IMG/VR virus record: IMGVR_UViG_3300002140_000159
Span: 1 to 64,000 of that record
Source: a virus
DNA: 64,000 nt
Reading direction: 5' to 3' (one strand)
Part shown: piece by piece, positions 8,266-56,386 of the stretch
How positions within the stretch are numbered: position 1 is the first letter of the stretch
Layout of the letters: each line of letters starts with the position of its first letter
Position numbers and translations under genes: made by a program
The notes under the pieces: generated by a model
What the model was told of the DNA's origin: nothing
The model's input: the letters and a program-made list of their open reading frames with translations, nothing else
Databases searched by the model: none

Positions 8266-9432
8266 ATGTCTATGCAATTTAATGCACCCCCAGCCACGGC
8301 TTCGACCGTTGGCTCGCAAATCACCAATGAGTTTTATCAGAAGAAAGCTCTGATCGAAGCTCAAAAAGAGCAGTACTTCAGCCAGCTGGCCGACGTAGTC
8401 TCAATGCCTAAGAACATGGGCAAGAAAATCAAGCGTTACCACTACTTGCCTTTGCTCGATGACGGCAACATCAACGATCAAGGTATCGACGCTGCAGGCG
8501 TAACCAGTGCTGGCGGTAATTTGTACGGTTCGTCCAAAGACATCGGCACCATCACTGGCAAATTGCCTGTGTTGTCTGAGTCTGGTGGCCGAGTCAACCG
8601 CGTGGGCTTCAAGCGTAAGGAAATTGAAGGTACTTTGGAGAAGTTTGGCTTCTTTGACGAATACACCCAGGAATCTCTGGACTTCGACACCGATGCAGAA
8701 CTCATGTCCCACATCAATCGCGAGATGATCATGGGCGCAAACGAGATCACCGAAGACTCGCTACAGATTGACTTGCTCAGCGCTGCTGGTGTGATCAAGT
8801 ACGCAGGTACTGCCACGTCAAATGCCGGTATGGGCGCAGATGATCTAGTGACTTACAAAGATCTGATGCAGTTGTCTATTGATTTGGACAACAACCGCAC
8901 GCCTAAGCACACCAAGGTGATCAATGGCTCGCGCATGGTTGATACCCGTGTCTTGCCATCAGCTCGTGTGGCTTATATCGGCACTGAGTTGCTGCCAACC
9001 TTCAAAGCCATGAAGGATTTGCATGACAACCCAGCATTTATCGCTGTTGAGAAGTACGCCGCTGGTGGTGAGACTCTGCGCGGTGAAGCCGGTGCTGTTG
9101 ACCAGTTCCGTTTGGTGGTTGTTCCTGAGATGGTCAAGTGGGCTGGCGCTGGTGCAGATGCTTCTGCCGATTCTGCCAACTACGAAACAGGTAATCAGTT
9201 CGACGTGTTCCCAATCTTGGTGGTGGGTGACGAGTCCTTCACGACTGTTGGTTTCCAAACCGATGGTAAGACCGTGAAGTTCAAGATCACTCACAAAGCG
9301 CCAGGTGAGGCTACTGCTGACCGCAATGATCCTTACGGTGAGACAGGCTTCATGAGCATCAAGTGGTACTACGGTTTCATGGCCTTGCGTCCTGAGCGTA
9401 TTGCCTTGATCAAGACTGTTGCCCGTCTGTAA
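8266..9432 (+). CDS. major capsid protein
   Basis: 388 aa, follows the scaffold gene and is followed by a strong terminator. Its N-terminal region resembles N4-type HK97-fold capsid proteins, recognised from memory. Confidence 0.8.
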
Positions 9433-9444
9433 GCAAGACTAAGA

Positions 9445-9477
9445 GGGGGCGGGCCACAAGCTCGCTCCCTTTTTTTA
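9445..9477 (+). terminator. rho-independent terminator after capsid gene
   Basis: GGGGGCG...CGCTCCC stem (extendable to about 10 bp) followed by T7. Confidence 0.7.
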
Positions 9478-9510
9478 AGTATCTTTTTATCTCCATATTG
9501 AGGAATCGCA

Positions 9511-10089
9511 ATGTCTGATATCGACAACGACAACGAGCAGCCACTTGTGCAAGACGAGCTGACCACCTTAAAGGCGCGAGCCGACATGCTAGGTGTGACA
9601 TACCACCCTGCTATTGGTTTAGAAAAACTCAAAACCAAGGTAGCCGCTGCTTTAAGCGACACCACTGAATCTCCAGCAGCTGAAGACAAAGTTGAAGCAG
9701 CTGCTTCTGAAGTTGAGACATTAAGTGCCAAACGCCTTCGTCTTAAACGTCAGGCCAATGAGTTGGTGCGGATCCGCGTGTCTTGCATGAACCCTGCTAA
9801 GTCGGAGTGGGAAGGCGAGATCTTCACCTGCGGTAACTCACTGATTGGCTCCGTCAAGAAGTTCGTACCTTTCAATGCCGAAGAAGGCTGGCATGTGCCA
9901 CGCATCATCTTTGAGCAAATGAAAGAGCGCCAGTGCCAGATCTTTGTGGCTGTGCGAGATGCACGCGGCAACACCACACGCAAAGGCAAGCTCATCAAAG
10001 AGTTTGCAATTGAAGTGATGGAGCCATTGACCAAAGATGAGTTGTATGACCTGGCTCAACGCCAAGCCATGAGCAAGTCCATCGCCTAA
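9511..10089 (+). CDS. hypothetical virion protein (N-terminal Rho_N/SAP-like helix-extended-helix)
   Basis: LKARADMLGVTYHPAIGLEKLKTKV motif; located in the head module. Confidence 0.5.
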   Translation: MSDIDNDNEQPLVQDELTTLKARADMLGVTYHPAIGLEKLKTKVAAALSDTTESPAAEDKVEAAASEVETLSAKRLRLKRQANELVRIRVSCMNPAKSEWEGEIFTCGNSLIGSVKKFVPFNAEEGWHVPRIIFEQMKERQCQIFVAVRDARGNTTRKGKLIKEFAIEVMEPLTKDELYDLAQRQAMSKSIA

Positions 10090-34367: not shown

Positions 34368-36116
34368 TTACGCTGAGCAAGCGATGCATTCGTCTTTGAT
34401 GACGACACCACTTCGGCTGTAGATGTAGTACTGACTTAAACAATCTGGGTGCACAAGCACTTCGGTCATGAGGTCAGCCACTAGGTTTTCAGAGCCGTCT
34501 TCTGGAACATAGAAGTTCAAAGACTGACCTTGGCATGTGTACTTTTGCCGCTGGGTAGCGTGGCGCAATATGATCCGCTGGTCCATCTCAAAAGCGTTGA
34601 GGAAGACCAGTTTCTCAGCTGCATTGAGCCAGCTAACGTGCTGCACAGAGCCCAGGTTTTCAATGATGTCTTGAATCGTGTCGTCGTTGTAGACGCCTTT
34701 TTTCTTCATCACTTCATAGATCACTGGGGTAATCCGGCGAAGCTCGCCTACGCTGGTGCCTGCATCAAAGACTGCACCTGGATCTGGAAACCAAGACTCA
34801 CTGACACCGCCCATAAGTAGTGCAGTTGTCTTGGTAGGGGCATAGGCTGTACGGTGTGTATTTCTCACTCCGTAACCTTTGCACCAGTCAGGCTCACCGT
34901 ACTCAACAGCTAACCACTGGCTTGCGCGCAGTGACTCGTCATGCAAGTGCTTGGCAATCTCTCCTGAGAGAAACTGTGCTTCCAGACCGATGTACGGGAT
35001 GTTCTTGCTTTGCAAGTACGTGTGAAAACCCATAATTCCAAGACCAATGGCTCGGCCTTTGCGGGTGAACTCACGTACCTTTTCCATGCCTGGAATACCT
35101 TCGCTGGCTTCAATAAACTCTGAGCACAAGCAATCCAGAAACACAGTAGCAATGAATGCTGAGTCACTATGCTTGATCCGATCCCAGTGAGCCAAGTTCA
35201 ATGAGGACAAGATACAAGAGTAGGTGTAGTCGTTACTAGAGTGCAGCATGATCTCACTGCACAAGTTGGACGCCACGACGTCTAGACCATGGTCTTTGTA
35301 CATCTGTGGACGATGACGATTGGCTTTGTCTACACAAAAAATGTAGCCTTTGCCTGTCGTCAGCTTGGTGTACAGCGCCTTGATCCAGCGGCGTGATGCA
35401 TCTTCCTCACCTGCAACCAGGCGAGCTACAAAGGTGTCTTTAATGATCCAGCCGTAGTTCTTGCCATTGGGATCTGCAGCGAGTTGATCGCACGCTTCGT
35501 CCCAGTCTGGGTGCTCAATATTGAGGTAAGCGCCTACTGAGCCACGGCGATTGCCACCTTGGCTGATCTTGCCTGCCGTCGTGAAGAAGTCGTTGATGAC
35601 CTCCACAGGACCACTGGCTTTACCGCCGCTCTTGATGGGTGTGCCGCGAGCACGGATCGTTGAGAAGTCAGCGCTGGTGCCAAAGCCTTGCTTAGACAGC
35701 AATGCGGTTTCGCGCATGTTGTCGTAGAAAGACTCTACTGAGTCGCCTACTTGCTGACCTGAGCAAGACACCATCATTCCGCGTGGAGTGCCGGTGTTGG
35801 ACAGTGCAGGGGATGCTGGTGACAGCACCCCATCCCACAGTTCATTGAAGAACTTGGCTTCCCATTCCAGCTCCCGACCTTTCAGGTGCCTGGCCAATGT
35901 CTTGGCAATTTGCTTGTGCCTGCCAAGCACTGCGTCTTCACCAGGGTAGGCGTACTTTTCTTTGAACATCTGCCAGCCTGGAGTGGTGTACCAGTCTGGG
36001 AGGTGTCCTTTGTCTTGTAACGCTTTACGCTCAAGGCTCAGGCGCTCATACTTTTGCAGGTTCTCAACCGCAGGCGGTGAAGTCTGCTCAGCAGTGTCAA
36101 TGGGGTTAGAGTGCAT
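34368..36116 (-). CDS. nrdA: ribonucleotide reductase large subunit (no ATP-cone)
   Basis: SNLCSEI active-site motif and GGNRRGS. The start is set at MHSNPIDT; the ORF-track start at 36188 would overlap nrdB by 83 nt. Confidence 0.85.
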   Translation of the reverse strand: MHSNPIDTAEQTSPPAVENLQKYERLSLERKALQDKGHLPDWYTTPGWQMFKEKYAYPGEDAVLGRHKQIAKTLARHLKGRELEWEAKFFNELWDGVLSPASPALSNTGTPRGMMVSCSGQQVGDSVESFYDNMRETALLSKQGFGTSADFSTIRARGTPIKSGGKASGPVEVINDFFTTAGKISQGGNRRGSVGAYLNIEHPDWDEACDQLAADPNGKNYGWIIKDTFVARLVAGEEDASRRWIKALYTKLTTGKGYIFCVDKANRHRPQMYKDHGLDVVASNLCSEIMLHSSNDYTYSCILSSLNLAHWDRIKHSDSAFIATVFLDCLCSEFIEASEGIPGMEKVREFTRKGRAIGLGIMGFHTYLQSKNIPYIGLEAQFLSGEIAKHLHDESLRASQWLAVEYGEPDWCKGYGVRNTHRTAYAPTKTTALLMGGVSESWFPDPGAVFDAGTSVGELRRITPVIYEVMKKKGVYNDDTIQDIIENLGSVQHVSWLNAAEKLVFLNAFEMDQRIILRHATQRQKYTCQGQSLNFYVPEDGSENLVADLMTEVLVHPDCLSQYYIYSRSGVVIKDECIACSA

Positions 36117-37218
36117 CAGCAAGATCCTTGTTAAAAGCCAGCTTGTGCTTGGCCCAGTTGCGGGTGTATTGCAGCTGGGTGGCTGCAAAGAAATCAGGGA
36201 CTTTGACGGTAGACAGTTGCTGGTAAAACCACATTGAGATCACGCCTTTGTCAAAGCCGAACATGGCGGGCATCTCTAAGCGGTTCAGCACTACGTCAAT
36301 GCGGTCTTCTAAGAAGCGGTTTAACTCTGTCTGAGTGACTACACGGTTGCCAGGAATGGCAAACAGCATGTCGTTGATGCGTCGCTCGTGGTCGGCTACT
36401 TTCTGAGCGATATCAATGATCTTTGCGGACAGAGCAGCGTGCTGCTCTAAGCTGTGGTTGCCAGCCTTGATACGTTCTGCTTTGCATTCACGGAACAGGC
36501 GGGCTGAAGCAATGGAGTGAAAGTTTTCATCCTTAGCTGAGCCATCAATGCCGGATACAAAGTGAGGAATCAAGTTGTAGCCGCGTGAGTTGAAGCCTTT
36601 GAAGTAGCCAAAAGCAGTGAACAACACTGCGCCTTCAAGGAAGGCTAGAGCTGCTGTGACTTCTAAGGCGTCTTCCGACGCTGTACATGCGTTGATAAAA
36701 GCAATGCGCTCAGCAAGTATGGGATCTGATTTCCAACGGGAATAAAACTCGTCATTGGAATTACCCATGACTTTGTTTCCAATGTCATAGAACGGTGCAT
36801 GAGAGCCCAGCTCAACATTGGCAAAGCAAGCAGCCATGCGCTGAATCTCAGGGCGTGGGAATAAGCGACTTATCTTTCCTCCCCAGAGTTCTTCGCCGCC
36901 AATCATTAACTCATACTGAGTCAATATTGATTGTGCGGTTAGTAATCCATGGCGCTCTGCGTCATTTAAACCAACGCGAAAGTCTTGTTCGTCTTCTTCG
37001 ACACCTAGTTCTTCTGCAGGCCAGAATATAGATTGCTGCTCAATACTCATTTCTGTAGCCCATGGATACCGAGCTACATAAGATCCGGTTGGGGTTTCAA
37101 TCTGGCTTAGATATGTTTTTTCTGTCATGGAATCTTTGTTTTTAGGGTTAAAAAAACCAATACTTTCCTGGGCAGGAAAGTATTGGTGTGTATCTAGACT
37201 TAGTTTGTCAGTAGTCAT
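36106..37218 (-). CDS. nrdB: ribonucleotide reductase small subunit
   Basis: Di-iron ligand pattern: FANVELGSHAPFY, EGAVLFTAFGYF, KDENFHSIA. Confidence 0.85.
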   Translation of the reverse strand: MTTDKLSLDTHQYFPAQESIGFFNPKNKDSMTEKTYLSQIETPTGSYVARYPWATEMSIEQQSIFWPAEELGVEEDEQDFRVGLNDAERHGLLTAQSILTQYELMIGGEELWGGKISRLFPRPEIQRMAACFANVELGSHAPFYDIGNKVMGNSNDEFYSRWKSDPILAERIAFINACTASEDALEVTAALAFLEGAVLFTAFGYFKGFNSRGYNLIPHFVSGIDGSAKDENFHSIASARLFRECKAERIKAGNHSLEQHAALSAKIIDIAQKVADHERRINDMLFAIPGNRVVTQTELNRFLEDRIDVVLNRLEMPAMFGFDKGVISMWFYQQLSTVKVPDFFAATQLQYTRNWAKHKLAFNKDLADAL

Positions 37219-37283
37219 ACAGGGGCCAGGAAGCCCCTGGATAATCTAAACTAAGTTAATGTGGAATGCGAGTTTACTGTATA

Positions 37284-38021
37284 TTAATACTTACCTGCAG
37301 TTAATGCTTGCCAAGAAATAGGATATAAGGGGGCAATAATGCCCCCAATCTGATTGGCCAATTCTTGTATTTCAAGCTGAGCATGAGAATCTGTTCGCAA
37401 GTTGTAGAAGTTGGCAAAAGCGTAGAGTGATCCTGTCCATAACCAGTTAACTTCACATCCTTGTGGGAGGATAAAGCGAGCCTGTTCAGGGCAAATACCT
37501 TGTTTAACCATTTCTTCATACGAGTTAATGGCAGAAACACCAGCGCTTTTGTACACTGACTGCCAATAACTAGAGTCAATGTGTGCTCCAGCAGAGCCCT
37601 GTTTAACAGATGCAGCTGCTTGTCTAAATACGTCAGGAACGTACAATTCAGGACGGCTGGAGATATACCGTCTGGATTCTTCTGATTCAATAAAACCAAT
37701 CTTGTGTTTAAACGCCTGGCGTGCAATTGGCACAGGTGCTTGCATTCGGATGGAGATATGTGGATGACCAAATGGAACCCAGTGCTCTGGGATATTTCTG
37801 CAGTAAGTGGCAAGCTCCTTAGCTTTCTCCATGCTCAAGCAGTTGGTGAATTCCACCAGGAGTTTTTCCCAATCACCAGAAGCCATGCCTCTGGCTAAGA
37901 ATCTGATCAGATTATTATTCTGAGCTTCAGTGAACTGATCTGCTAGTGTGGCAAAGGATTGTCTAGCATAATTAGCCACATCTTTATCGGTGAGATAATG
38001 GTTTTCGTAAATTGCTTTCAA
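37284..38021 (-). CDS. thyX: flavin-dependent thymidylate synthase (ThyX-like)
   Basis: KHKIGFIESEESRRY resembles the ThyX RHR-x7-S-x-RY motif. The C-terminal TDSHAQLEIQELA also fits. Confidence 0.7.
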   Translation of the reverse strand: MKAIYENHYLTDKDVANYARQSFATLADQFTEAQNNNLIRFLARGMASGDWEKLLVEFTNCLSMEKAKELATYCRNIPEHWVPFGHPHISIRMQAPVPIARQAFKHKIGFIESEESRRYISSRPELYVPDVFRQAAASVKQGSAGAHIDSSYWQSVYKSAGVSAINSYEEMVKQGICPEQARFILPQGCEVNWLWTGSLYAFANFYNLRTDSHAQLEIQELANQIGGIIAPLYPISWQALTAGKY

Positions 38022-43729: not shown

Positions 43730-44755
43730 ATGAGCATTAAATTTAGCAACAACGCATCCGCCACGCTGGCAGCTGGGGTAGCCGCATCGGCAGTGTCTTT
43801 GACGTTGACCTCTGGTCAGGGGTCTTTGTTTCCAGCTCTGGCTGCAGGAGATATTTCTTACGCTACGTTAGCCAACACAGCTAACCAGTTGGAGATTGTC
43901 AGAGTAACTGCCCGATCAGGCGATGTTTTGACGGTTGTGCGTGCGCAAGAAAACACCTTGGCTATTGCATTTACCGCTGGCGATAAAGTTGAACTGCGGG
44001 TCACTGCTGCAGGACTGAAAACAATTCAGGACGAGGCTGCTGCTGCAGACTCGGCATTAAAAACAACTGTAGATTCGCGCAATGTTTCTACTGGAACAGG
44101 TCTGCAAGGTGGGGGAAACCTTTCTGCAAACCGCACATTGAGTATTGCAAATACAGCAGTGACTGCAGGTGCTTTTGGCTCAGCCTCAGCGATACCCACT
44201 TTCACTGTGAACCAGCAAGGTCAGTTGACTGCAGCAGGGACTGTGGCTTTGGACTTGTCTGTCAAAGTTAGCAAATCCGGTGACTCAATGAGCGGCAACT
44301 TGACCATGACTGATGGTGCGAACGTTGTATCTTCACAAGGTGGGGACAACGCCAGAAGCACTGGCTTCAAGATGGCAGACGGCCAGGACCTCGGTGAGAT
44401 GAACCGGAGCAACCAATACATTGATAACCGAGTGAACAACTGCAATGGGTACATCAACGCAGGCAACTGCGCAGGCGACTTGCAGTACGCGCCGCCTAAC
44501 GGCAACTGGTGGGAGTGGTATTCGGGCAAGTCGCCTCAAGGTGCATGGGCCAACAGTGGCTCATACGACGGTGCTGGCGGCACAACGTACTCATACAACG
44601 CTGTAAGCGTCGGCTTGAACTACGCGGCTTATGGCTTGAGTGCTGATGAAATTGGCGGCTCTGAGTACACAAGGACGTACACCAACTGCAACTGCGGTGC
44701 ATTCAACTGTCGTACCAATTGCAACTGTAATTGCAACTGCAACTGCGGCAAATAA
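43730..44755 (+). CDS. tail fibre protein ending in an (Asn-Cys)n peptide
   Basis: Common phage-fibre N-terminal domain (SGQGSLFP...YATLANTANQLEIVRVTARSGDVLTVVRAQENT). C-terminus is TNCNCGAFNCRTNCNCNCNCNCGK. Confidence 0.7.
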   Translation: MSIKFSNNASATLAAGVAASAVSLTLTSGQGSLFPALAAGDISYATLANTANQLEIVRVTARSGDVLTVVRAQENTLAIAFTAGDKVELRVTAAGLKTIQDEAAAADSALKTTVDSRNVSTGTGLQGGGNLSANRTLSIANTAVTAGAFGSASAIPTFTVNQQGQLTAAGTVALDLSVKVSKSGDSMSGNLTMTDGANVVSSQGGDNARSTGFKMADGQDLGEMNRSNQYIDNRVNNCNGYINAGNCAGDLQYAPPNGNWWEWYSGKSPQGAWANSGSYDGAGGTTYSYNAVSVGLNYAAYGLSADEIGGSEYTRTYTNCNCGAFNCRTNCNCNCNCNCGK

Positions 44756-44766
44756 AAGGACTTTCA

Positions 44767-45666
44767 ATGAAAAAAATCAAATTTACTGCCGCTGTCTTTG
44801 CACATACAGGTCCGATACCAGCAAATCATGTGGTTCGTTTAGAAGTTATCAACGAAGTTTTGGTGGCTCGCTACTTTTGCGCACAGCCAGCCGAGTTACA
44901 TGATGGTCTTGATGTCCATCTAAGTCTGCCTGCCTTTGACCCAATGACAACGCCTTTGTTGCGCCAGATCATAAAAAATGGGCCTTACATTGCAGGCGAG
45001 GCGGTAACTAACGAACCAACACTTCAAGGTCGCGTGTTTCGTGAGACAGGAAGGCACATTTTTCGCGCTCCGCTGCGCGCTAATACAGTGTTGGGTCATT
45101 GGGAGCGCCAAGACTTTTCCGCTTTTGCTTTTCCGTTTGATGCGGCATTGAATGTCTCTGAGCCTTACAACCATTTTGTAGATAGCGTGTCTGTCAAAGG
45201 CGAAATTGGGCGCAACAGTAAACTGCGTAACGCGCAGACGTTGTTCCTAATGTACGTTGATGAAGCCGATGCTTCTATTAACCAGTGGACGCTGTGTTAC
45301 ATTACTTCGCCCATGTTTTTGCTAGAAGACACCACGCAAGGAGAGTGGGAAGTTGCACCGGCTGGCCTTAACTACTCCGCCTTGCTGCCTCAAGTAAGTT
45401 TGAGCGCGCCAGCCAATGTAGCTCCAGATGGCTGGGCTACAGTCAACGTAACACTAAACCGCGATAACACGCCACTGGCTTACGATGGTGAGATGGTAAT
45501 TGAAGCGGTCAGTGGCTACTTGCCTAAGCAGCGCTTACAAGTGCACAACGGCACAGCGTCTTTTAGAGCTATGGCGTTGGGTCTTCAAAGTGGCGACGCT
45601 TTACGAGTCAAAGTAGGCACTCGCCTGATTTCAGGGATGGCTTCGGTATCTATTGAAGTGGCGTGA
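44767..45666 (+). CDS. hypothetical protein with C-terminal Ig-like (Big-like) domain
   Basis: ATG at 44767 with an AAAGGA RBS. The ORF-track start at 44731 is a TTG inside the fibre gene. The C-terminus has a beta-sandwich-like pattern. Confidence 0.5.
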   Translation: MKKIKFTAAVFAHTGPIPANHVVRLEVINEVLVARYFCAQPAELHDGLDVHLSLPAFDPMTTPLLRQIIKNGPYIAGEAVTNEPTLQGRVFRETGRHIFRAPLRANTVLGHWERQDFSAFAFPFDAALNVSEPYNHFVDSVSVKGEIGRNSKLRNAQTLFLMYVDEADASINQWTLCYITSPMFLLEDTTQGEWEVAPAGLNYSALLPQVSLSAPANVAPDGWATVNVTLNRDNTPLAYDGEMVIEAVSGYLPKQRLQVHNGTASFRAMALGLQSGDALRVKVGTRLISGMASVSIEVA

Positions 45667-46511
45667 ACTTGATGCGCTTTACTGAACTGAGTCGGCAGTT
45701 TGATTTGGAGCGTGCCGCTTTGCAGGTGCGCTCCCCAATTGAGCCAGGAGACGTTGTTCGGGTAGTACTTCCTGTTAGCAGCCAAGCACTAGCTGATGCA
45801 GCTACAGCAGCGCAAGCTGCTTACCCGCTGGGTCAGTTTGCTTCTGTGAGTGGGCAACAAAGCCGTGCTTATTATGAAAGCATCTCTTTGGCGTTCAACC
45901 CCGACTCAGCTATTGAACCTTTGCACAGCACGTTGGGTTCTGCTGCGTTAACTCCAGCAGAGCATTACTACGCTACGCCCGCTACCTTGGTAAAAATAGG
46001 GTCGTTGCGCGATTCCTACTACGACACCTACGGGTTTCGTTTGCCTACTACAGCAGCAAGTAAGGAGTTAGCGTTGCTGACTTCAAAGCTTAAACGCAGT
46101 TTGGTGCGCTCGCGCATGTCGGTGATGCGTGCAGGCAGTGCTACAACTTCCGGGTTGTATTGGGGTTGGCACAAAGATGAGAGCGTGTTTGAAAACCTGC
46201 GAATCAACATTCATGTGACAGACTCGCCTGATCACCGGATACAGGTTATGCGGGAAGACCGCAAGCCAGCGTCTATGGATGACCCTGCTTTGACTGACCA
46301 CCGCTTTGAAGTGGGTTATGGCTATTCATGGGATACCCATTTACCGCACAGAGCTTGTTCTGTTGGTGTGCCAAAGCAAGACCGCACTGCCATTGTTCTG
46401 GGGGTTTCTCCTTGGTTTGACTACGACGCCCAAGCTGATGCTTGGACGCCTAATGAATTTTTTGGACGTAAGCATCCATTTGCAATGCTGCGCGATGGAG
46501 ATGTGCTGTGA
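45663..46511 (+). CDS. cupin / 2OG-Fe(II) oxygenase-like protein
   Basis: WHKDES...LRINIHV ... LPHRACS ... DRTAIVL gives an HxD...H facial-triad arrangement. The start overlaps the previous stop (GTGA). Confidence 0.5.
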   Translation: MNLMRFTELSRQFDLERAALQVRSPIEPGDVVRVVLPVSSQALADAATAAQAAYPLGQFASVSGQQSRAYYESISLAFNPDSAIEPLHSTLGSAALTPAEHYYATPATLVKIGSLRDSYYDTYGFRLPTTAASKELALLTSKLKRSLVRSRMSVMRAGSATTSGLYWGWHKDESVFENLRINIHVTDSPDHRIQVMREDRKPASMDDPALTDHRFEVGYGYSWDTHLPHRACSVGVPKQDRTAIVLGVSPWFDYDAQADAWTPNEFFGRKHPFAMLRDGDVL

Positions 46512-47236
46512 ACGAGTGGCCTTTGCAACTTGCTAAACATCAAGGTCGGTTTGACGACTTGATTTTTTCGCCTCTTGATTTACCTGCTCCTCCTGAAATA
46601 GACGCAGGGCGTTTTGTGCAGTGGATGCAGCTAGGTCAACAGCCTGAGACTTCTTTGCCGCGTGTGGCGTTTGAAAACTTAACTGGGCAGAGCTACCCTT
46701 GGCTGCTGCGTTCCTTAATCGGAGATTTGTCCGCTTTGGCTGAGGCTTTTCCTGAAGTACACCGTTATTTGTTGTGCTTTCCGTTCAAGCAAGTAAAGTC
46801 GCTGACTTTCTTGGCACAGCATGGGACGCAGGAGGTGTTTACACACACAGACTCTGATGACTTGTACGGAATGCGGTTTTATTTGACTGTCAAGAATTCA
46901 GAAGGTCTGCATTTTTTCAAAGCCAAAGAACGCTACGACCATTTTCCTACCTATGCACGCAGTGCAGAAGGGGTGCTTCAGCGAGCGGATTGGGACAAGC
47001 ACTTCTGGATGAGCCAGCCAATGTACGCCACACTTCCTGCAGGATGTCGCACCTTTGTTTTGAATAACTCTAGAGCGGCGCACGCGGTAGCTGCCAATAC
47101 TTGTGTGCTGGGTGAACGCATTGCCGTGTTGGTACGCGGCGAATTTGATACGCAAGCCCGTGATGCGCTGTTAGCCCGGTCTGTGGCAAAACACGCAGCC
47201 CATGCTTTGTGGTTTGACCAGCCGGTGGGGGATTAA
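46508..47236 (+). CDS. Asp/Asn beta-hydroxylase-like cupin oxygenase, paralogue 1
   Basis: VFTHTDSDDLYGMRFYLTV ... FVLNNSRAAHAV ... ERIAVLV. Confidence 0.55.
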   Translation: MNEWPLQLAKHQGRFDDLIFSPLDLPAPPEIDAGRFVQWMQLGQQPETSLPRVAFENLTGQSYPWLLRSLIGDLSALAEAFPEVHRYLLCFPFKQVKSLTFLAQHGTQEVFTHTDSDDLYGMRFYLTVKNSEGLHFFKAKERYDHFPTYARSAEGVLQRADWDKHFWMSQPMYATLPAGCRTFVLNNSRAAHAVAANTCVLGERIAVLVRGEFDTQARDALLARSVAKHAAHALWFDQPVGD

Positions 47237-47241
47237 ATCTT

Positions 47242-47964
47242 ATGACTGAATGGCCTTACAAGTTGGCTCAGCACGCAGGTCGCTACGACGATTTGATCTA
47301 TTGCCCGCTGGACCTGCCTTTGCCACCAACAGTAGACGTGCCGCAGTTTTTGGAGTGGATGGCAAGCGTGCAAGACCCGCAAATGCTGACTACCAAAAAT
47401 TCCTACGAGCAGGCAAAAAAACTTCCGTACCCATGGCTATCGCGTTTTTTGAAAGACGCAATGCAACTTAAAGAAGCTTTTCCTGAGCTTTACGACTATC
47501 TGTTGTTGTATCCGTTTGATGCCCTGACATCTCTGATGTTTTTGGCGCAGAAAGGACACCAGGATGTTTTTACGCACTGTGATCCTGATGGTCTGTACTG
47601 TATGCGGCTGTACTTGACAGTCAAAAATTGCGAAGGGCTGCACTTTTTTAAAGCTCGCCAGCCTTTTGATCACTTTTCGACTTACTCGCGTAACGAAGCA
47701 GGCGACATTGTCAGTGCTGACTGGGATAAGTACTTTAAAACAGATGAGCCGACATACGCCCATCTGCCTAAGCCGACACGAGCATACGTACTTAATAGCG
47801 CCAGGGCTGCACATGCTGTGGACCGCAACACTTGCGAGTTGGGTGAGCGTATTTGTGTGCTTGTTTTTGGAACAGCCAACGTCCAGCGACGGGACGCTTT
47901 GATTGAGCGCTCGCTCAAGCTTTACAGCAAAAACGCTATTTGGTACGACAAGGATCTGTCATGA
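47242..47964 (+). CDS. Asp/Asn beta-hydroxylase-like cupin oxygenase, paralogue 2
   Basis: VFTHCDPDGLYCMRLYLTV ... YVLNSARAAHAV ... ERICVLV. It is clearly alignable with the previous ORF along its whole length. Confidence 0.55.
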   Translation: MTEWPYKLAQHAGRYDDLIYCPLDLPLPPTVDVPQFLEWMASVQDPQMLTTKNSYEQAKKLPYPWLSRFLKDAMQLKEAFPELYDYLLLYPFDALTSLMFLAQKGHQDVFTHCDPDGLYCMRLYLTVKNCEGLHFFKARQPFDHFSTYSRNEAGDIVSADWDKYFKTDEPTYAHLPKPTRAYVLNSARAAHAVDRNTCELGERICVLVFGTANVQRRDALIERSLKLYSKNAIWYDKDLS

Positions 47965-48716
47965 AGCTAACTGTTTGCTTGAAAATGTTTGTGGCTGTAC
48001 CACTGCTGCCGTTCTTTATTGTGTGGGCGCTGTGGGGCGTTTCTGAGTGGCCATTGGTAGTTGCAGCAGGCATCTTGTTGTACTACCCAATACAGCAACT
48101 TGGACAGGCTAATGGTTATCACAAGCTGTTTGCGCACAGAGCATTTATTGCAAGGTCTTGGTATCCGTATGTGGCTTGTTTTTTTAGCTCAATTGCTTTT
48201 TATGGTGATCCATTAAGTGCAGCCATGATTCACAGAATCCACCACAGGTACGCAGACACTAGCAAAGACCCGCACTCACCATCACACGGTCGTTTACACG
48301 CCTACATTGGATGGATGGCTTCATACAAGCCAAACACTTCTGACGCAAGGTGCATTACTGACTTGCTGCGGGACTACCCCTGGATGATTACGTTTCGCAG
48401 GTATGAGTGGATGTTGCCTTGGGTTTTCCACGCGTCGCTGTTTGCCGTTTCACCACTTGTAAGCTGCGCGGTGTTGATTGGCTGCTTGCTGTCTATCCAC
48501 AACGCTTTAATAGTTAATGCGTTTTCACACAACCCAAGCCTTGGTAGCGAAGACAAGGCGGTTAATTCTTTGTGGATGGCACGTTGGGTAAACCCAACCT
48601 TTTTGCATAAGCACCATCACACACATGGCAGCGCTGTTGATTATTCGGCTCAAGGTGTCACGGACTACTGGGCCAAGTTTATAAATCGTTTTATTGCCTT
48701 ACCTAGTACTAAATAA
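47961..48716 (+). CDS. membrane His-box di-iron enzyme, delta-9 acyl desaturase-like
   Basis: GYHKLFAHRAF, HRIHHRYADTSKDPHSP and HKHHHTHG boxes with hydrophobic helices. The ATG at 47961 overlaps the previous stop (ATGA). Confidence 0.7.
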   Translation: MKLTVCLKMFVAVPLLPFFIVWALWGVSEWPLVVAAGILLYYPIQQLGQANGYHKLFAHRAFIARSWYPYVACFFSSIAFYGDPLSAAMIHRIHHRYADTSKDPHSPSHGRLHAYIGWMASYKPNTSDARCITDLLRDYPWMITFRRYEWMLPWVFHASLFAVSPLVSCAVLIGCLLSIHNALIVNAFSHNPSLGSEDKAVNSLWMARWVNPTFLHKHHHTHGSAVDYSAQGVTDYWAKFINRFIALPSTK

Positions 48717-48728
48717 AGTGGTTTCACC

Positions 48729-49460
48729 ATGATGCTTAATTTCAATCTCCGAATGGACAACAAACGAACCACAGCGCTGTACTACGTTGGGCTTGTTGGT
48801 GCTTTGTTTGCTGTCTCTGACGCTAGCCTTGGTTTGGCTTTAACCGCCTTGTGCGTCCATGTGGTTGTCATCTCATTGTTCTCTGCTGTTGTTCACCGCT
48901 ACTTTTGCCACAGGGCGTATGAAGCTAATCCAACACTGATGTGGCTTGTTGCGTTTCTACCAGTTGCCTATGGCTATTCAACACCTGCTGGCTGGGCGGC
49001 ATTGCACTCAGCACACCATGCGTTTGCCGACACAGACAAAGACACCCACCTGAAAGGATGGGCTGGCTTGTTTACTGCTAACTACCGTTTGCCACCATTC
49101 AAGTTTGCTCTTGCTGGCAAGTGGTTTCACAGCACTCGACATGCTTTCCTGCACAGTAATGCGCTTGGGGTTGTGCTTGTTTGGCACTTGCTCTTGCTGT
49201 TTATATCTGTCGATGTTTTCCTGTGGGTCGGCATGATGCCGCTGTTTACACTTCATTTTTGCAATGGACTGCACCGTGTGTTTAGTCACAAAGGAGCACA
49301 AGCTCACAACCGTTGGTACTTAGAGTACGTATGCCCAATGGGTGGCGAGTGGATACATGACGAGCATCACGACACTGCTAAAAAGCCAGTCTTCTCAAAT
49401 CGTTGGTACGAGGTAGACACTGGTTCAATATTTGTACGACTGTTTAGGACTGCGTCATGA
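48729..49460 (+). CDS. second His-box di-iron desaturase/hydroxylase-like membrane protein
   Basis: HRYFCHRAY, HSAHHAFADTDKDTH and IHDEHHD boxes with several TM helices. Confidence 0.65.
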   Translation: MMLNFNLRMDNKRTTALYYVGLVGALFAVSDASLGLALTALCVHVVVISLFSAVVHRYFCHRAYEANPTLMWLVAFLPVAYGYSTPAGWAALHSAHHAFADTDKDTHLKGWAGLFTANYRLPPFKFALAGKWFHSTRHAFLHSNALGVVLVWHLLLLFISVDVFLWVGMMPLFTLHFCNGLHRVFSHKGAQAHNRWYLEYVCPMGGEWIHDEHHDTAKKPVFSNRWYEVDTGSIFVRLFRTAS

Positions 49461-50149
49461 TTCGAGCAGAAGTTGCAGGAGTAGACACAGCCAACTACAT
49501 TTTTGACACTGGTCTAACGTTTGGCGTGGACTTGGGCCATGAAGTGCTTGAACTGGCCATGACCAAGATTGACTTGTTTCCAAAGCGACACAATTACAAC
49601 CGTGGGGACAGTCCAAAAGAGTTGATAAAAATGATTGGCGCAAACAAAGCGCGAGAACTCTACAGGCGTACAGCTCAGATGAAAGCGCTTTGCGGTAGTG
49701 AACTCATTACATTTGACCAGCACTTTTTCCCAGATGCACTTAGCCAACAACTTATTGAGTCTGCACCGCAGTGGTTGCAAGACCTCTCTGTTGGCGACCC
49801 GTCCACGATGCTACAGGTATCAAGCAATGGCAACTACCTTGGCACCCACAAAGGACATAAGCGCAGAGCATCTATGTTTATGTTGCTGCAAGGCGGTGGG
49901 CAAGAAACTAGGTGGTATCGGAATAGAGAAGAGTTTGAGGTCATTGACCCATTGCGAATTCCAGATCACGACAAAATTGAACACGTTGTGACTGCAATCA
50001 TGGAGCCGTGGCGCTGGTATGTATTTAACCATTTTGAATGGCATTCAGTACATAACTTTGCTGCTCAAAGCATTCGTGTCAACATGGGGCTTGATTTCAA
50101 CAATGTAACAGCCGCCGACATTGTTAAGCAGTTAGTTAAACGAGGTTAA
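49457..50149 (+). CDS. Asp/Asn beta-hydroxylase-like cupin protein (H-x-G variant)
   Basis: LGTHKGHKRRASMFMLLQG ... WYVFNHFEWHSVHN ... IRVNMGL. The start overlaps the previous stop. Confidence 0.45.
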   Translation: MIRAEVAGVDTANYIFDTGLTFGVDLGHEVLELAMTKIDLFPKRHNYNRGDSPKELIKMIGANKARELYRRTAQMKALCGSELITFDQHFFPDALSQQLIESAPQWLQDLSVGDPSTMLQVSSNGNYLGTHKGHKRRASMFMLLQGGGQETRWYRNREEFEVIDPLRIPDHDKIEHVVTAIMEPWRWYVFNHFEWHSVHNFAAQSIRVNMGLDFNNVTAADIVKQLVKRG

Positions 50150-50731
50150 TTTATTGCGTTCAACAGCTTGATTTAATGATACGTCGAATGGTAAAACAGC
50201 CAGCATCAATAAAACCTCGGTTCTTACAGGCTGCTGTCCCAGTACACGTTGGTTAATTAATGTGTAACGAGATAAGCAATGTTGAGGAATTATTTCAGGC
50301 ACGCTAACTTGGTATAGGTTGAATCTGCCTAAGCGAGCTTGAACAATATGGTTTTTCCAGCGAGGGTTATTAGCCCGGACAGAATAAAAACCAGTATATC
50401 CAAGAGATTCCATGTAAGTTACAGCTGCATCAAAAGCTGGCCCTAGCCCGGATAGCCTACCTGAAAAAACACTTCCGGTGGGGCGATTACAGATCATAAC
50501 TAAGGTGGATAACGGAGCATCCGGCCAAGGCCAGAAAGTAACAAAAGCAACAAGTGTGTCTTTATTGTCAAAAGCACCAAAGCAAATACAGCCAGTATTA
50601 AGGTTTTGAGAAAAAGCCTGCGCATACGGAATAGCGTCAGGAAGTTTAGGAGATAACATTATTAAAGGCTGAGAATCAAATACTGATTGCACAGCTATAG
50701 CGTCATTTAATGTCAAGAGGCGTGTTTTCAT
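50132..50731 (-). CDS. GNAT-like acyl/acetyltransferase
   Basis: An R-x-x-G-x-G motif (GRLSGLG) in a roughly 200-aa alpha/beta ORF. It is AT-rich, on the opposite strand, and its end overlaps the previous gene by 18 nt. Confidence 0.4.
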   Translation of the reverse strand: MKTRLLTLNDAIAVQSVFDSQPLIMLSPKLPDAIPYAQAFSQNLNTGCICFGAFDNKDTLVAFVTFWPWPDAPLSTLVMICNRPTGSVFSGRLSGLGPAFDAAVTYMESLGYTGFYSVRANNPRWKNHIVQARLGRFNLYQVSVPEIIPQHCLSRYTLINQRVLGQQPVRTEVLLMLAVLPFDVSLNQAVERNKLTSFN

Positions 50732-50779
50732 ACGTTATTATTTTATATGCAATAGAATATTGGTATTGCTTATAAAATA

Positions 50780-52159
50780 ATGCAATATTTTAAACATAGG
50801 CAATTAATGACTCAATTTAGAATTAAAACTCAAGCGCCAGATGGTACTGAGCCAATATTGCTATACGACAATCAGACTAGTAGCCTGACTTGGGAAAATG
50901 GACAGTCTGTTATTCCTGTACAGCCGCGTGAATATAAAACTGCAACTGCGGTATCGGCTGATGCGCCTGGATTAAAGAGTGTCATCAAAACACTCAAAGT
51001 CAGCTTGGGATTGTCTTGCAACTACGAATGCAACTATTGCTCGCAGCGCTTTGTGCCTCACGCTGATTCCAGCAACCCTGGAGACATTGAGCCTTTTGTA
51101 GCGCAGCTTACAGGGGCGTTGTCCCAAGCGCCAGACTGCATCGAGTTCTGGGGCGGTGAGCCATTTGTTTACTGGAAAACACTAAAACCTCTGGCTGAAC
51201 GCTTGCGCAAGATGTACCCAGAGACAATCTTTAGCGTCATCACTAACGGCACACTGCTTGATAAAGAAAAAAACCAGTGGCTTGATGATCTTGGTTTTGC
51301 TGTCGGTATTAGTCATGACGGACCTGGCTACCATGCACGCGGTCTTGATCCAATGGATGACCCAGAAAAACGCGCTGCCATCATGGATTTATACGACCGT
51401 CTAAAGCCAAAAGGACGCATCAGCATTAACGCCATGATGCACAGAGACAATCCAAGTCGCGCTGCAGTACAGGACTGGCTGCAGGAGCGCTTTGGCGACG
51501 ATGTGATGATTGGCGAGGGGGCGTTTATTGACCCGTATGACGAGGGTGGCTTGGCAGCAACGCTGAAGACCCAAGCTGAGCAGATTGGCTACCGCGCTAC
51601 TGCCTTTGATGAAATACGTACTGGCAAGATTGGTAATTTCGATATTGCACATCAGAAAATCAAGGGCTTTTTAGATTCAGTAAAGACCGCACGCCCCGCA
51701 AGCAACCTTGGCCAAAAGTGCGGCATGGACAAGGAAGACAACATGGCCGTAGACCTGCATGGCAATGTCATTACTTGTCAAAACGTGAGCGCCGCCTCAA
51801 CTGGGCCCAACGGTGAAAGTCATTTGATTGGCAAGCTTGATGACCTGGCTGGCGTAAAGATGAAGACCGCTACCCACTGGAGCAAGCGCGACGAATGTAC
51901 GAGTTGTCCAGTGCTGCAACTTTGTCACGGTTCCTGCATGTTCTTGCACGGTCCATTGTGGGACGCTGGCTGTGACGCTAGCTACTCAGACAACATCCCA
52001 TTCTTTGCTGCTGGCCTGGAGTATTTGACGGGCTGTAAGCCGATCTATATCGAAGGTGAATTCAGAGAGTCTCGCAAAGACATCTTTGGTCTGGTCAATG
52101 GAATACCGGAAGCGCCTCCCAAAAAGAAGCCTTTCCCAATTCCGGTTGTATCAATCTAA
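50780..52159 (+). CDS. radical SAM / SPASM-domain maturase
   Basis: CNYECNYC is the CxxxCxxC cluster (C80, C84, C87). The full SPASM pattern is C-x13-G-x4-C (KCGMDKEDNMAVDLHGNVITC) plus C-x2-C-x5-C-x3-C (CTSCPVLQLCHGSC). The start may be 50807. Confidence 0.85.
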   Translation: MQYFKHRQLMTQFRIKTQAPDGTEPILLYDNQTSSLTWENGQSVIPVQPREYKTATAVSADAPGLKSVIKTLKVSLGLSCNYECNYCSQRFVPHADSSNPGDIEPFVAQLTGALSQAPDCIEFWGGEPFVYWKTLKPLAERLRKMYPETIFSVITNGTLLDKEKNQWLDDLGFAVGISHDGPGYHARGLDPMDDPEKRAAIMDLYDRLKPKGRISINAMMHRDNPSRAAVQDWLQERFGDDVMIGEGAFIDPYDEGGLAATLKTQAEQIGYRATAFDEIRTGKIGNFDIAHQKIKGFLDSVKTARPASNLGQKCGMDKEDNMAVDLHGNVITCQNVSAASTGPNGESHLIGKLDDLAGVKMKTATHWSKRDECTSCPVLQLCHGSCMFLHGPLWDAGCDASYSDNIPFFAAGLEYLTGCKPIYIEGEFRESRKDIFGLVNGIPEAPPKKKPFPIPVVSI

Positions 52160-52189: not shown

Positions 52190-52588
52190 ATGGACAGCTT
52201 TTTTATGTCTGCATTGGTTTTTATTCACTTGATGATGCCTATGGCAGCGCAAGCACAAGTTGTTATGAAAACCCCGCTGAGCTACTCACTAACTGAGTAT
52301 GGGGTGGTCTTAGCTACTGCTCTGTTGGGGGGGCTAGCGAATTGGTACACCAAAGCCAAGAATGATCCGACTGGTAGTTACAGCGCTGCTGCACTAATTG
52401 GTGAGCTATGCGTGTCCGCCTTTGCAGGCGTCATTGCATTTTGGCTGTGTGAGTACTTTGAAATGCAACCTTTATTGACTGCAGCTGCGGTTGGTATGGC
52501 GGGTCACGCTGGCGCTAGGGGCTTGGATTGGCTTGAGCGGTATTTGCGCAAATCTGCTGAACAGAAACTAGGCTTAACCAAGGAGTAA
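52190..52588 (+). CDS. putative holin
   Basis: Multi-TM small protein directly upstream of the endolysin gene. The start codon is uncertain. Confidence 0.5.
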   Translation: MDSFFMSALVFIHLMMPMAAQAQVVMKTPLSYSLTEYGVVLATALLGGLANWYTKAKNDPTGSYSAAALIGELCVSAFAGVIAFWLCEYFEMQPLLTAAAVGMAGHAGARGLDWLERYLRKSAEQKLGLTKE

Positions 52589-52592
52589 CTTA

Positions 52593-53018
52593 ATGAACCT
52601 TGAACTTACCAAACAACTGCGTCGTGATGAAGACGACGTGTTGTCTGCGTACACAGACTCACTGGGCTACTTAACTATTGGTGTGGGGCGTTTGATTGAC
52701 AAGCGCAAAGGTGGTGGCATCTCTGCGGAAGAGTCTGCTTATTTGTTGGCTAACGATATACGCAACAAAACAGCAGCAGTCATTAAGGCATTGCCTTGGG
52801 CTGAGCATTTAGATCCAGCTCGCTTAGGCGTACTGGTGAACATGGCCTTCCAGCTAGGCATTACTGGTTTGCTTGGGTTTAAAACGACTTTAGCTCTAGT
52901 ACAAGGTGGAAATTACGACCGCGCTGCTGAGGCCATGGATGATTCATTGTGGTCCAGGCAAACACCAGCACGCTGTGCTCGCTTACAAAAGCAGATGCGA
53001 ACTGGGGTGTGGCAATGA
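52593..53018 (+). CDS. endolysin, GH24 (T4-lysozyme-like)
   Basis: RRDEDDVLSAYTDSLGYLTIGVGR contains the E...D...T catalytic arrangement. Confidence 0.85.
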   Translation: MNLELTKQLRRDEDDVLSAYTDSLGYLTIGVGRLIDKRKGGGISAEESAYLLANDIRNKTAAVIKALPWAEHLDPARLGVLVNMAFQLGITGLLGFKTTLALVQGGNYDRAAEAMDDSLWSRQTPARCARLQKQMRTGVWQ

Positions 53019-55318: not shown

Positions 55319-56386
55319 TTAACCTAGCATTTCCACACGATTTGGCTCAGCTGTTTCACGCCATCTGGCCTTGATGTATTTCTCAGTTGTGTTCTTTGTA
55401 GCATGGCCACAAAGCAGCTGGATTCGCTCAATCGGAATGCCAGCAAGCCACATGTCTGTAGCTCCTTTTCCTTTCAGATCTCTGAAGCCAAATGAAGCCA
55501 TGTCAGCCAGCTCTGGGACGGTTTCCCGCACCTTCACCTGCGCTCGGCGCAGCATAGATGAAATGCCATCGTATGTGTAGCCAGTACCATCACGGGCGTG
55601 GATCAATGGCTGATGAATCATTGGGATTTGACCGATGGATTTTCGGATCATTACTTCCAATGTTTCAGTCAAGCCAACGTCCACAAGTCTGCCGGTCTTG
55701 TACTGCCTGAAGCTCAGGACACGAACTCCATCTTTGTTCTTGAGGACTGAGGGAGTCCACAAGATGATGTCGCTCTCTGGTCGTTGCAAGGTACGGAATG
55801 TCATCTCCATGAGCAGTCGCACCTGGAAAGGTGCAGCAGCGAACACAGCTTTGTATTCCTGGTTCGTGACATAGCGTTCACGTTGCTTTTCAGCATTGCG
55901 AACAACACCACTGGCCCTCATACAAGGGTTGATGGTGATGTCGCCTTGGTTAGACCGGATCATCCAAGACATACAACTAGACAGGCAAGCCCTCTCTCGA
56001 TTTGCACGCACGCCTCGGTTCATCTTTGCGCCCATATCCAAGTATTCAGATACGTGGTGGGGCTTGACCTCGGATGGTGTCATTGAGCCAAACCCTGCGC
56101 GAAGAAATGAGGAGGCGTTGATGTAGTCTTCCAGCGTCCTTGCAGACAGGTCTTTGACTTTGACCCTTGCAGCACAGTCCAAAAGAAACTGATCCAAGTA
56201 CCAAGACATGGTTCCCCAGATACCAGATGGGTCGTTGTAGTGGTCTGCACGTTTCTTTGCAAGGCTCAGGTCTTTGCCTAAGTTCTCCCACTTGTTAGTG
56301 TCTGGATGGACGTAGAAGAACACACCGTGGTTTAGATAAGTTCGGCGTGGCAAGCCTTGGCTGGCATCTTTGCGTTTACGGCCCAT
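55319..56386 (-). CDS. int: tyrosine integrase, lambda-Int-like with N-terminal arm-binding domain
   Basis: N-terminus MGRKRKDASQGLPRRTYLNHGVFFYVHPDTNKWENLG compares with lambda MGRRRSHERRDLPPNLYIRNNGYYCYRDPRTGKEFGLG. The C-terminus has LCGHATKNTTEKY. Confidence 0.9.
   Translation of the reverse strand: MGRKRKDASQGLPRRTYLNHGVFFYVHPDTNKWENLGKDLSLAKKRADHYNDPSGIWGTMSWYLDQFLLDCAARVKVKDLSARTLEDYINASSFLRAGFGSMTPSEVKPHHVSEYLDMGAKMNRGVRANRERACLSSCMSWMIRSNQGDITINPCMRASGVVRNAEKQRERYVTNQEYKAVFAAAPFQVRLLMEMTFRTLQRPESDIILWTPSVLKNKDGVRVLSFRQYKTGRLVDVGLTETLEVMIRKSIGQIPMIHQPLIHARDGTGYTYDGISSMLRRAQVKVRETVPELADMASFGFRDLKGKGATDMWLAGIPIERIQLLCGHATKNTTEKYIKARWRETAEPNRVEMLG

Follow-up and report, generated by a model that had tools for sequence, protein, structure and literature searches.

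To our knowledge, radical S-adenosylmethionine (SAM) enzymes with a SPASM domain have been studied almost solely as makers of small secreted peptides, and we know of almost no covalent post-translational chemistry on phage structural proteins, bar a few cases such as capsid cross-linking. Among the closest described enzymes, PapB links Cys to side-chain carbons of Asp or Glu (PMC9413430), NxxcB makes a Cys-to-Asn thioether cross-link (PMC9413430, PMC8172795), and QhpD joins Cys to Asp/Glu through thioethers within a protein subunit (PMC8172795). Phage clusters of several unrelated 2-oxoglutarate (2OG) oxygenases have been predicted to modify peptides or proteins, and the same prediction was made for operons of bacteria in which hydroxylase genes accompany genes for tail-collar-like or collagen-like proteins (Iyer et al. 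2010, PMC2938197). Here we describe a gene module found in a 64,000-nucleotide stretch of viral DNA (positions 1 to 64,000 of IMG/VR record IMGVR_UViG_3300002140_000159, hereafter the window), in which a tail fibre that ends in an Asn-Cys repeat (the NC tail) is followed by genes P2 to P9 and by a radical-SAM/SPASM enzyme (rSAM). In a survey of loci, NC tails and SPASM enzymes were linked near-obligately, in both directions and independently of the phage backbone. Because the linkage has these three properties, the tail would most likely be the substrate of the enzyme, and the cassette is probably a fibre-tail maturation system that applies an undescribed chemistry, similar to that of RiPPs (peptides that are made by ribosomes and modified after translation), to a virion protein. 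The gene island singled out by the initial annotation of the window is a rare extended variant of a far more widespread, simpler module.

Linkage of the Asn-Cys tail to a radical-SAM/SPASM enzyme

The tail, its carrier and the enzyme are located in the window as follows:

43730..44755, + strand: tail fibre of 341 amino acids, proposed substrate and carrier of the NC tail
44681..44752, + strand: C-terminal Asn-Cys repeat tail TNCNCGAFNCRTNCNCNCNCNCGK, proposed core peptide, with Lys as its last residue
50780..52159, + strand: radical-SAM/SPASM enzyme of 459 amino acids, the conserved enzyme of the module

We sampled loci through rSAM, which gave 25 loci from IMG/VR and 80 loci from a genome scan with 195 hits; individual loci are referred to below by number (L001 and so on). 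The hits of the genome scan were mostly freshwater Burkholderiales (Limnohabitans, Polaromonas, Rhodoferax, and Polynucleobacter), together with some Burkholderia, Paraburkholderia, and alphaproteobacteria. In the forward direction, we took the rSAM loci whose upstream sequence extended over 3 kb or more and searched them for a same-strand open reading frame (ORF) within 7.5 kb that ended either in (xC)≥3 or in an NC repeat plus a Hint domain. Such a tail ORF was present in 70 of the 76 loci, compared with 8 of the ∼8,000 remaining ORFs of these loci, and those 8 were all spurious (short or antisense); in the pooled loci, the tail was found in 117/123. The six exceptions are the phage RSP15, with a shorter NC tail (…NCQCGN), L087, where the repeat is set back from the stop codon, the rearranged loci L004 and L073, L093, which has a chaperone-type fibre end without an NC tail, and L065, which may carry the Hint variant described below. 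For the reverse direction, we scanned IMG/VR with a DNA pattern for NCNCNCNC and kept ORFs of at least 90 amino acids with the repeat no more than 12 residues from the stop codon. At least 66 genuine C-terminal (NC)≥4 ORFs were retrieved; among the matches listed, 54 of 66 had a same-strand rSAM gene downstream, with a median distance of 987 nucleotides (nt), and 10 of the remaining 12 loci had less than 2.7 kb of downstream sequence. Overall, 120 of 146 NC proteins were unique.

The pairing was found on N4-like (the window), siphovirus (JWF), Ackermannviridae (RSP15), lambda-like, GpJ-type, and SU10-type backbones. Three cultured phages of unrelated types, JWF, RSP15, and Achromobacter phage 2-1, encode a close rSAM homologue (∼50% identity), and in the flanks of both JWF and RSP15 the rSAM gene lies directly behind tail-fibre genes. 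In RSP15, ORF048 ends in ...NTNCQCGN, and the genes that come next are P2 and P3 homologues. The survey of co-occurrence that the initial annotation had proposed thus came out in favor of maturation of the fibre tip, with linkage both ways on many unrelated backbones.

Residues 1-202 of the window fibre match PHROG tail-fibre families (phrog_8469, 3.8e-31), the repeat stands directly before the stop codon, and homologues of the fibre in L003 (85%), L020 (68%), and L236 (57%) have NC tails too. Most loci carry the tail at the end of a protein of 200-690 amino acids with tail-fibre N-terminal homology, encoded inside a tail gene block, while in some phages it sits on small proteins of ∼100 amino acids. 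At least five carrier bodies unrelated by BLAST bear it. The 96 unique tails contain a median of 5.5 Cys (range, 3-15), and Cys is preceded in 70% of cases by Asn, in 10% by another Cys, in 8% by Asp, and in 6% by Ala. A submotif, NCNCG(A/G/V)xNCxxNCNCNC, is common to phages assigned to beta- and alphaproteobacterial contigs. We also considered the tail as a mere slippage-prone DNA repeat and rejected this, because its codons in the window are mixed (AAC/AAT and TGC/TGT) and the motif is kept in contigs of 34-68% GC.

Two variants differ in how the repeat is presented. In JWF gp028 (L001, 7844-9295), the sequence ...NCNCDCNCNCSC is followed by a Hint autoprocessing domain of the intein/Hedgehog type, and the same holds for L024 (5811-7499) and L083 (7778-9307), where Hint directly follows the NC repeat (…NCNCSC, then FPAGT…). 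Autocleavage by Hint would make the NC repeat the new C terminus, possibly as a reactive thioester. These three loci have the JWF gp029 family in place of P2, and no 2OG oxygenase was recognized in them. L024 encodes, directly upstream of rSAM (8463-10004), a 513-amino-acid protein with an N-terminal GGGxAG motif for binding flavin adenine dinucleotide, which resembles flavin halogenases and monooxygenases and occupies the position usually taken by a 2OG oxygenase. In the second variant (L021/L025, 7644-8556), three tandem genes of ∼95-110 amino acids, each ending in NCNCNCNC or NCNCACNC, sit upstream of P2, an Oxy_5 oxygenase, and rSAM, resembling the multiple precursor genes of RiPP clusters.

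The enzyme itself scores above the curated cutoffs for both of its domains (Pfam Radical_SAM PF04055, 36.4 bits versus 29.5; SPASM TIGR04085, 32.9 versus 27). In 12 homologues of 49-84% identity, the CX3CX2C motif (C80, C84, and C87) and the seven SPASM cysteines (C314, C333, C373, C376, C382, C386, and C398) are invariant, in agreement with the initial description, ahead of the lysis genes, of a radical-SAM enzyme whose SPASM domain has seven Cys. It also matches phrog_1802 (2e-58), and its family comprises more than 2,300 clusters, of which the best 120 listed are all unnamed or "uncharacterized protein." The nearest solved structures are the RiPP/protein maturases 8vpo (a cyclopropyl synthase), CteB, and anSME; counting PapB and QhpD as well, every one of the closest relatives that are curated or solved is a maturase of peptides or proteins. 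Because every equivalog threshold was missed by a wide margin (PapB NF047865, 59.5 versus 340; QhpD TIGR03906, 41.4 versus 453; anSME TIGR03942, 43.2 versus 349), rSAM forms a distinct, uncurated new family, whose reaction type is a guess.

Among NCBIfam families, PapB matches best, in an alignment that runs almost from one end to the other (residues 70-387; 3.2e-16). PapB cross-links Cys to Asp/Glu, and NxxcB to Asn, in repeated short motifs, but the spacing of those motifs is CxxxD or NxxC, in contrast to the dipeptide NC spacing found here, where the putative substrate is moreover fused to the C terminus of a structural protein. In the maturation of quinohemoprotein amine dehydrogenase (QhpD/QhpC), an rSAM/SPASM enzyme cross-links a protein subunit rather than a released peptide, and TIGR03906 is among the matches (7e-11); the present setting differs in its (NC)n tail on a phage virion, in having P2 and 2OG oxygenases as partners, and in lacking a quinone cofactor context. 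anSME, the anaerobic sulfatase-maturating enzyme, acts on a Cys of a full-length folded protein, and its PDB profile match spans residues 71-380 including SPASM (8e-9), but the sulfatase motif C/SxPxR is absent here. As for the formal hallmarks of a RiPP, a core-like repeat and dedicated enzymes are present, whereas a leader was not detected, nor, by Pfam in rSAM residues 1-65, a RiPP recognition element (RRE).

A different view of the same association is that the NC tail forms a structural metal or Fe-S site at the trimer axis, that rSAM and the oxygenases act elsewhere (on P2, a small molecule, or a host target), and that these genes travel with the fibre merely as a shared mobile host-range module. 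The tip of T4 gp37 carries HxH iron sites, an alternating x-Cys pattern would put the thiols on one face of a beta strand and so suit a metal ladder, host-range modules are exchanged as blocks, and Pfam did not detect an RRE in rSAM. However, the association outlasts the swap of the carrier body, the move of the tail to ∼100-amino-acid proteins, and the swap of the P2 family; in addition, P2 has no conserved Cys, and the close relatives of rSAM all modify peptides or proteins. We therefore regard a metal site with unrelated enzymes as improbable, compared with maturation of the tail by rSAM.

P2 and the 2OG oxygenases of the module

The remaining genes of the island and the cassette that bounds it are as follows:

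44767..45666, + strand: P2, 299 amino acids, module-specific partner protein
45663..46511, + strand: P3, predicted Fe(II)/2OG oxygenase with a double-stranded beta-helix fold, uncurated family
46508..47236, + strand: P4, predicted Fe(II)/2OG oxygenase, tandem paralogue 1
47242..47964, + strand: P5, predicted Fe(II)/2OG oxygenase, tandem paralogue 2
47961..48716, + strand: P6, membrane di-iron His-box protein resembling stearoyl-CoA desaturase (SCD) and other desaturases; start as in the JGI gene call
48729..49460, + strand: P7, membrane di-iron His-box protein, SCD/desaturase-like
49457..50149, + strand: P8, possible 2OG oxygenase, by weak matches
50132..50731, - strand: P9, 199 amino acids, reversed gene overlapping the end of P8 by 18 nt
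52190..53018, + strand: holin (start, 52190) and endolysin (start, 52593), downstream boundary cassette (phrog_785, 7e-21; phrog_7, 2.9e-19)

Every ORF of the ten-gene set was found where the initial annotation had placed it, and the tight coupling that it described behind the fibre end peptide is present as well: the junctions overlap by 4 nt at 45663, 46508, 47961, and 49457, the other gaps measure 5 and 12 nt, and 11 nt separate the fibre from the true ATG of P2 at 44767, which is preceded by AAGGA. A scan of 41.5-53.5 kb for promoters and terminators gave sites no more numerous than in shuffled sequence, so this approach could not define where the operon begins and ends. Megablast with the complete island as query found no match among 50,697 phage records.

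The P2 family occurs in 73/107 loci, or in 89/123 loci with enough upstream sequence, and always lies between the NC-tail gene and the enzymes; besides the Hint-type loci, some others have the JWF gp029 family as its substitute. Its members share the C-terminal motif G..GD.v.vK.G.k..sG. The label "Ig-like" given to P2 could not be confirmed, as neither the single sequence nor a 10-member profile matched Pfam or PDB.

Between the tail gene and rSAM, about two-thirds of the modules encode 2OG-Fe(II) oxygenases, usually one to three, from PF13759 and PF13640, with several above the gathering score, or from the P3 family. For P2 to P5 and P9, searches of Pfam, NCBIfam, and PHROGs returned nothing usable, and PDB profile searches with P3, P9, and P2 gave no meaningful match; P3 and P4 were characterized from their alignments and AlphaFold2 models. 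The P3 family comprises 183 clusters, none with a Pfam domain, in which H170, D172, H229, and R241 are invariant. The P3 model has a predicted local distance difference test score (pLDDT) of 92.8 and is matched by Foldseek with probability 1.0 to Fe/2OG hydroxylases, with 7v4f, SnoN, proline hydroxylases, and ABH2 as top PDB matches. This family is also found in the simple NC modules of RSP15, L122, L167, and L212, as sole or second oxygenase, and a tblastn search with P3 against the same phage records found only RSP15 and RsoM2USA, while P4 gave no match. The P4/P5 family is smaller, with 23 clusters and invariant H113, D115, H192, and R204; the P4 model (pLDDT, 88.4) matches the structural-genomics proteins 3bvc and 2rg4, PHD2, and the Pseudomonas putida prolyl hydroxylase. 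P5 is 53% identical to P4 and has the same HxD...H...R positions in the alignment, and L003 has a single copy of this type, nearer to P5 (87%).

By predicted fold and invariant HxD...H...R ligands, P3, P4, and P5 are thus predicted members of the Fe(II)/2OG oxygenase superfamily. The initial annotation had counted four 2OG cupins and affiliated them with AspH/LpxO. The first claim stands for these three and is less clear for P8, which matches PF13759 2OG-FeII_Oxy_5 at E = 0.07 (13.9 bits versus a cutoff of 27) and aligns its H131, H196, and R207 with the Oxy_5 profile of the modules in a weak hhalign match (E = 0.17); P8 is kept at 65-70% identity in L235-L237. The second claim was rejected, since none of P3, P4, P5, and P8 matched PF05118 at E ≤ 0.1 and the top Foldseek matches were other 2OG oxygenases. 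When the profiles of P3, P4, and P8 were compared with one another and with the Oxy_5 and Oxy_3 profiles of the modules, no comparison reached significance, and the four proteins therefore cannot be treated as a single family by sequence.

A relative of P3 in a nonphage Cys-rich cluster bears on yet another explanation, namely, that the NC-tail proteins, especially the ∼100-amino-acid forms, are precursors of a released RiPP (a bacteriocin or signal that phages and prophages would encode) with an N-terminal leader. In L114 (1-7735; NCBI GCA_034668045.1), the P3 homologue has a HemolysinCabind protein on one side and an ATP-grasp-like gene on the other, followed by a fused YcaO-nitroreductase, a 46-amino-acid ORF ending in GCSCCGGK, and a type I secretion gene (HlyD), so that the locus looks like a Cys-rich RiPP-like cluster that uses the P3 family; the three tandem precursor-like ORFs of L021/L025 point in the same direction. 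Against a released product, the tail mostly ends a fibre-like protein of 200-690 amino acids within the tail gene block, and the module has no conserved protease or exporter, which makes this explanation highly improbable.

Extended islands and the terminal lysine

P6 and P7 carry the three His boxes that had been noted in both membrane proteins. The boxes HX4H, HXXHH, and HXXHH (H54/H59, H91/H94/H95, and H216/H219/H220) are invariant when P6 and P7 are aligned with homologues that bear PF00487, Pfam itself gave no match for P6 or P7, and the NCBIfam DesA family matches P6 at E = 0.006 and P7 at E = 1.5e-11. Because the DesA score at the latter E value (44 bits) lies far below the cutoff of 400, the two proteins can be assigned, from these alignments, to the membrane fatty-acid desaturase/hydroxylase superfamily at the superfamily level only. 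P7 has orthologues of 55-75% identity in L108 and L235-L238.

P9, which had been labeled GNAT-like, matched nothing in Pfam, NCBIfam, or PDB profiles, leaving that label unconfirmed, and its family is represented by no more than 12 of the 1.84 billion proteins in the library searched. The window P9 contains RLSGLG (RxxGxG-like), a motif that is not conserved across the family. An assignment to HlyC-type acyltransferases was rejected, as hhalign found no similarity. The gene is present and reversed in L003, L108, and L235-L238, as it is in the window. A DUF2061 membrane protein of 69-75 amino acids, absent from the window, lies between P8 and the reversed P9 in L235 (10687-10914) and L237 (11402-11611).

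We define the extended set as P4, a P7-type protein, and a reversed P9, usually with P8 and P6. It is rarer than the simple module and was found at seven loci (the window, L003, L108, and L235-L238) on at least four different backbones, with P4 in 7/7. All seven NC tails end in Lys: GK in the window, SK in L003, CK in L108, ...NCNCK in L235, ...NCNCNCK in L236, ...VCTCK in L237, and ...NCACK in L238. Among the ∼110 simple modules, 2-3 do so, which corresponds to a Fisher p value of about 8e-10 that is not corrected for phylogeny. A terminal Lys is not exclusive to the extended islands, as the simple modules L084 and L121/L135 also end in Lys. Because the extra genes co-vary with a Lys-ending tail, the extended set would probably perform a further modification centered on this residue.

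The initial annotation had weighed a second possibility, a cassette that remodels host envelope lipids and merely shares the late operon. In this case P3-P9, and above all P6/P7, would desaturate or hydroxylate acyl chains without any chemical link to the fibre. Two loci outside NC modules lend this some plausibility. L110 (6686-20951), a cellular locus on a 3.16-Mb chromosome (ENA ERZ25039594), encodes a P3 homologue of 37% identity next to two HlyC-type acyltransferases, two acyl-AMP ligases (AMP-binding), and an SCD-like desaturase, so that P3 and a desaturase adjoin acyl-activating enzymes and acyltransferases; the cluster also holds a protein of more than 4,030 amino acids, which suggests that a giant protein is acylated there with a tailored fatty acid. 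L112 (1-18711; ENA ERZ23486678 scaffold_24, 34% GC) is a dense array with homologues of P3 and P4 (two or three copies), three FA_desaturase and three radical-SAM genes, two TauD, PhyH, ATP-grasp, nitroreductase, and many small probable oxygenases, and no NC tail is present in the 18.7 kb covered. The known substrates of the P6/P7 superfamily are, in addition, lipids. In phages, however, the gene set was found only between P2 and rSAM of NC modules, at the seven loci above, each time with a Lys-terminated tail; P3 is also the sole oxygenase of simple NC modules, and the junctions are translationally coupled to the fibre operon. Because the set is confined to NC modules and Lys is found in 7/7, we favor a link to the fibre over a free-riding auxiliary metabolic gene cassette, and consider envelope remodeling unlikely.

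In a further reading, the cross-linked tip of extended islands would be lipidated as well, with P9 acylating the Lys and the SCD-like enzymes and extra oxygenases desaturating or hydroxylating the chain. This would yield a receptor-binding tip with a covalent, tailored lipid anchor atop an rSAM-stapled (NC)n needle, an outcome that we view as unlikely. It recalls the activation of RTX toxins by HlyC-type lysine acyltransferases, in that L110 pairs a P3 homologue with HlyC acyltransferases and the extended islands always end in Lys, but it is unlike that system in that P9 has no detectable similarity to HlyC; fibre acylation is hence speculative.

The L112 array may be related to the cyanophage dioxygenase arrays of PMC2938197 and may link these with NC-type modules. 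The clusters in that work differ from ours in that no NC tail and no SPASM enzyme were described for them, and the cyanophage arrays were read as secondary-metabolite synthesis.

Proposed maturation of the fibre tip and setting of the element

The comparison establishes gene content, enzyme superfamilies, and a near-obligate co-occurrence in both directions; what we infer from these patterns is the substrate-enzyme relation, the type of bond, the hydroxylation, and the roles of P2 and P6-P9. We propose as substrate the (Asn-Cys)n tail at the very C terminus of the fibre, or of the ∼100-amino-acid tip protein in other phages. rSAM would most likely install sulfur-to-carbon (thioether) cross-links from Cys thiols to neighboring Asn/Asp side chains, either inside a single chain of the fibre or from one of its three chains to another. 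Thioether stapling is favored because the relatives of rSAM modify peptides or proteins and because Asn/Asp alternate with Cys in the tails, and we put this specific chemistry forward tentatively, with less confidence than maturation as such. The Fe(II)/2OG oxygenases, whose genes lie between those for the tail and rSAM, would probably hydroxylate the tail, and P2 could be a chaperone or adaptor that presents it, or a distal component of the tip. The product would be a rigid tip resistant to redox change and proteases, to which, in the extended version, P4/P5/P8, P6/P7, and P9 would probably add the further Lys-centered modification.

Several points weigh against this scheme. The evidence is co-occurrence, which cannot separate a substrate from a co-functioning partner, and many loci come from related phages of freshwater Burkholderiales, so the counts are not phylogenetically independent. 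The enzyme scores far below every curated equivalog cutoff, which makes its reaction type a guess, and a Pfam search of its residues 1-65 detected neither an RRE nor a PqqD-type domain. About one-third of the modules have no recognized oxygenase, and therefore hydroxylation cannot be essential. Finally, SCD-like His-box enzymes are, as far as we know, known only on lipids or hydrophobic substrates, a poor fit to pure protein tailoring. On balance, the idea that the enzymes hydroxylate and cross-link the Asn/Cys-rich fibre tip, as first proposed from the window, appears well supported at the genomic level, by the co-occurrence and by oxygenases in about two-thirds of the modules, while the AspH affiliation did not hold and the GNAT and Ig labels were not confirmed.

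In full-text searches of the literature, we found no paper in which rSAM/SPASM enzymes are connected with NC repeats and with fibres of phages; what comes closest is the prediction on dioxygenase arrays and hydroxylase/tail-collar operons in PMC2938197. The enzyme classes are thus known, and what is new are the putative substrate class, its setting on a receptor-binding virion protein, and the Lys-linked extended variant. A simple, recognizable motif on receptor-binding fibres has an almost one-to-one partner in a large, uncurated SPASM family, in phages whose hosts are abundant freshwater Burkholderiales, Ralstonia, and Achromobacter. If the proposal is true, then even without lipidation the simple module would provide the first radical-SAM-matured virion protein and a new substrate class for RiPP enzymology, probably with a new cross-link topology. 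It would also represent a new phage route to building or stabilizing host-recognition tips, would partly explain the many phage 2OG oxygenases beside tail genes, and would offer enzymes for protein stapling via a short, genetically encodable tag. The three cultured phages (RSP15, JWF, and Achromobacter phage 2-1) make the link to fibre maturation directly testable.

The window belongs to an N4-like phage, as a 3,530-amino-acid ORF (15218-25810, + strand) matches phrog_2206, "virion RNA polymerase" (E = 0; 1757 bits). N4-like phages are usually regarded as strictly lytic. The same element encodes a tyrosine integrase (55319-56386, - strand; phrog_1, 2.3e-31), and because the two genes share one element, it may be an N4-like phage able to integrate; no tRNA genes are present in the window, including around the integrase. 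Directly upstream of the tail block, the gene table of the identical JGI contig lists two nucleotide-metabolism genes, a ribonucleotide reductase small subunit and ThyX (Thy1), at window positions 36106-38021 on the - strand.

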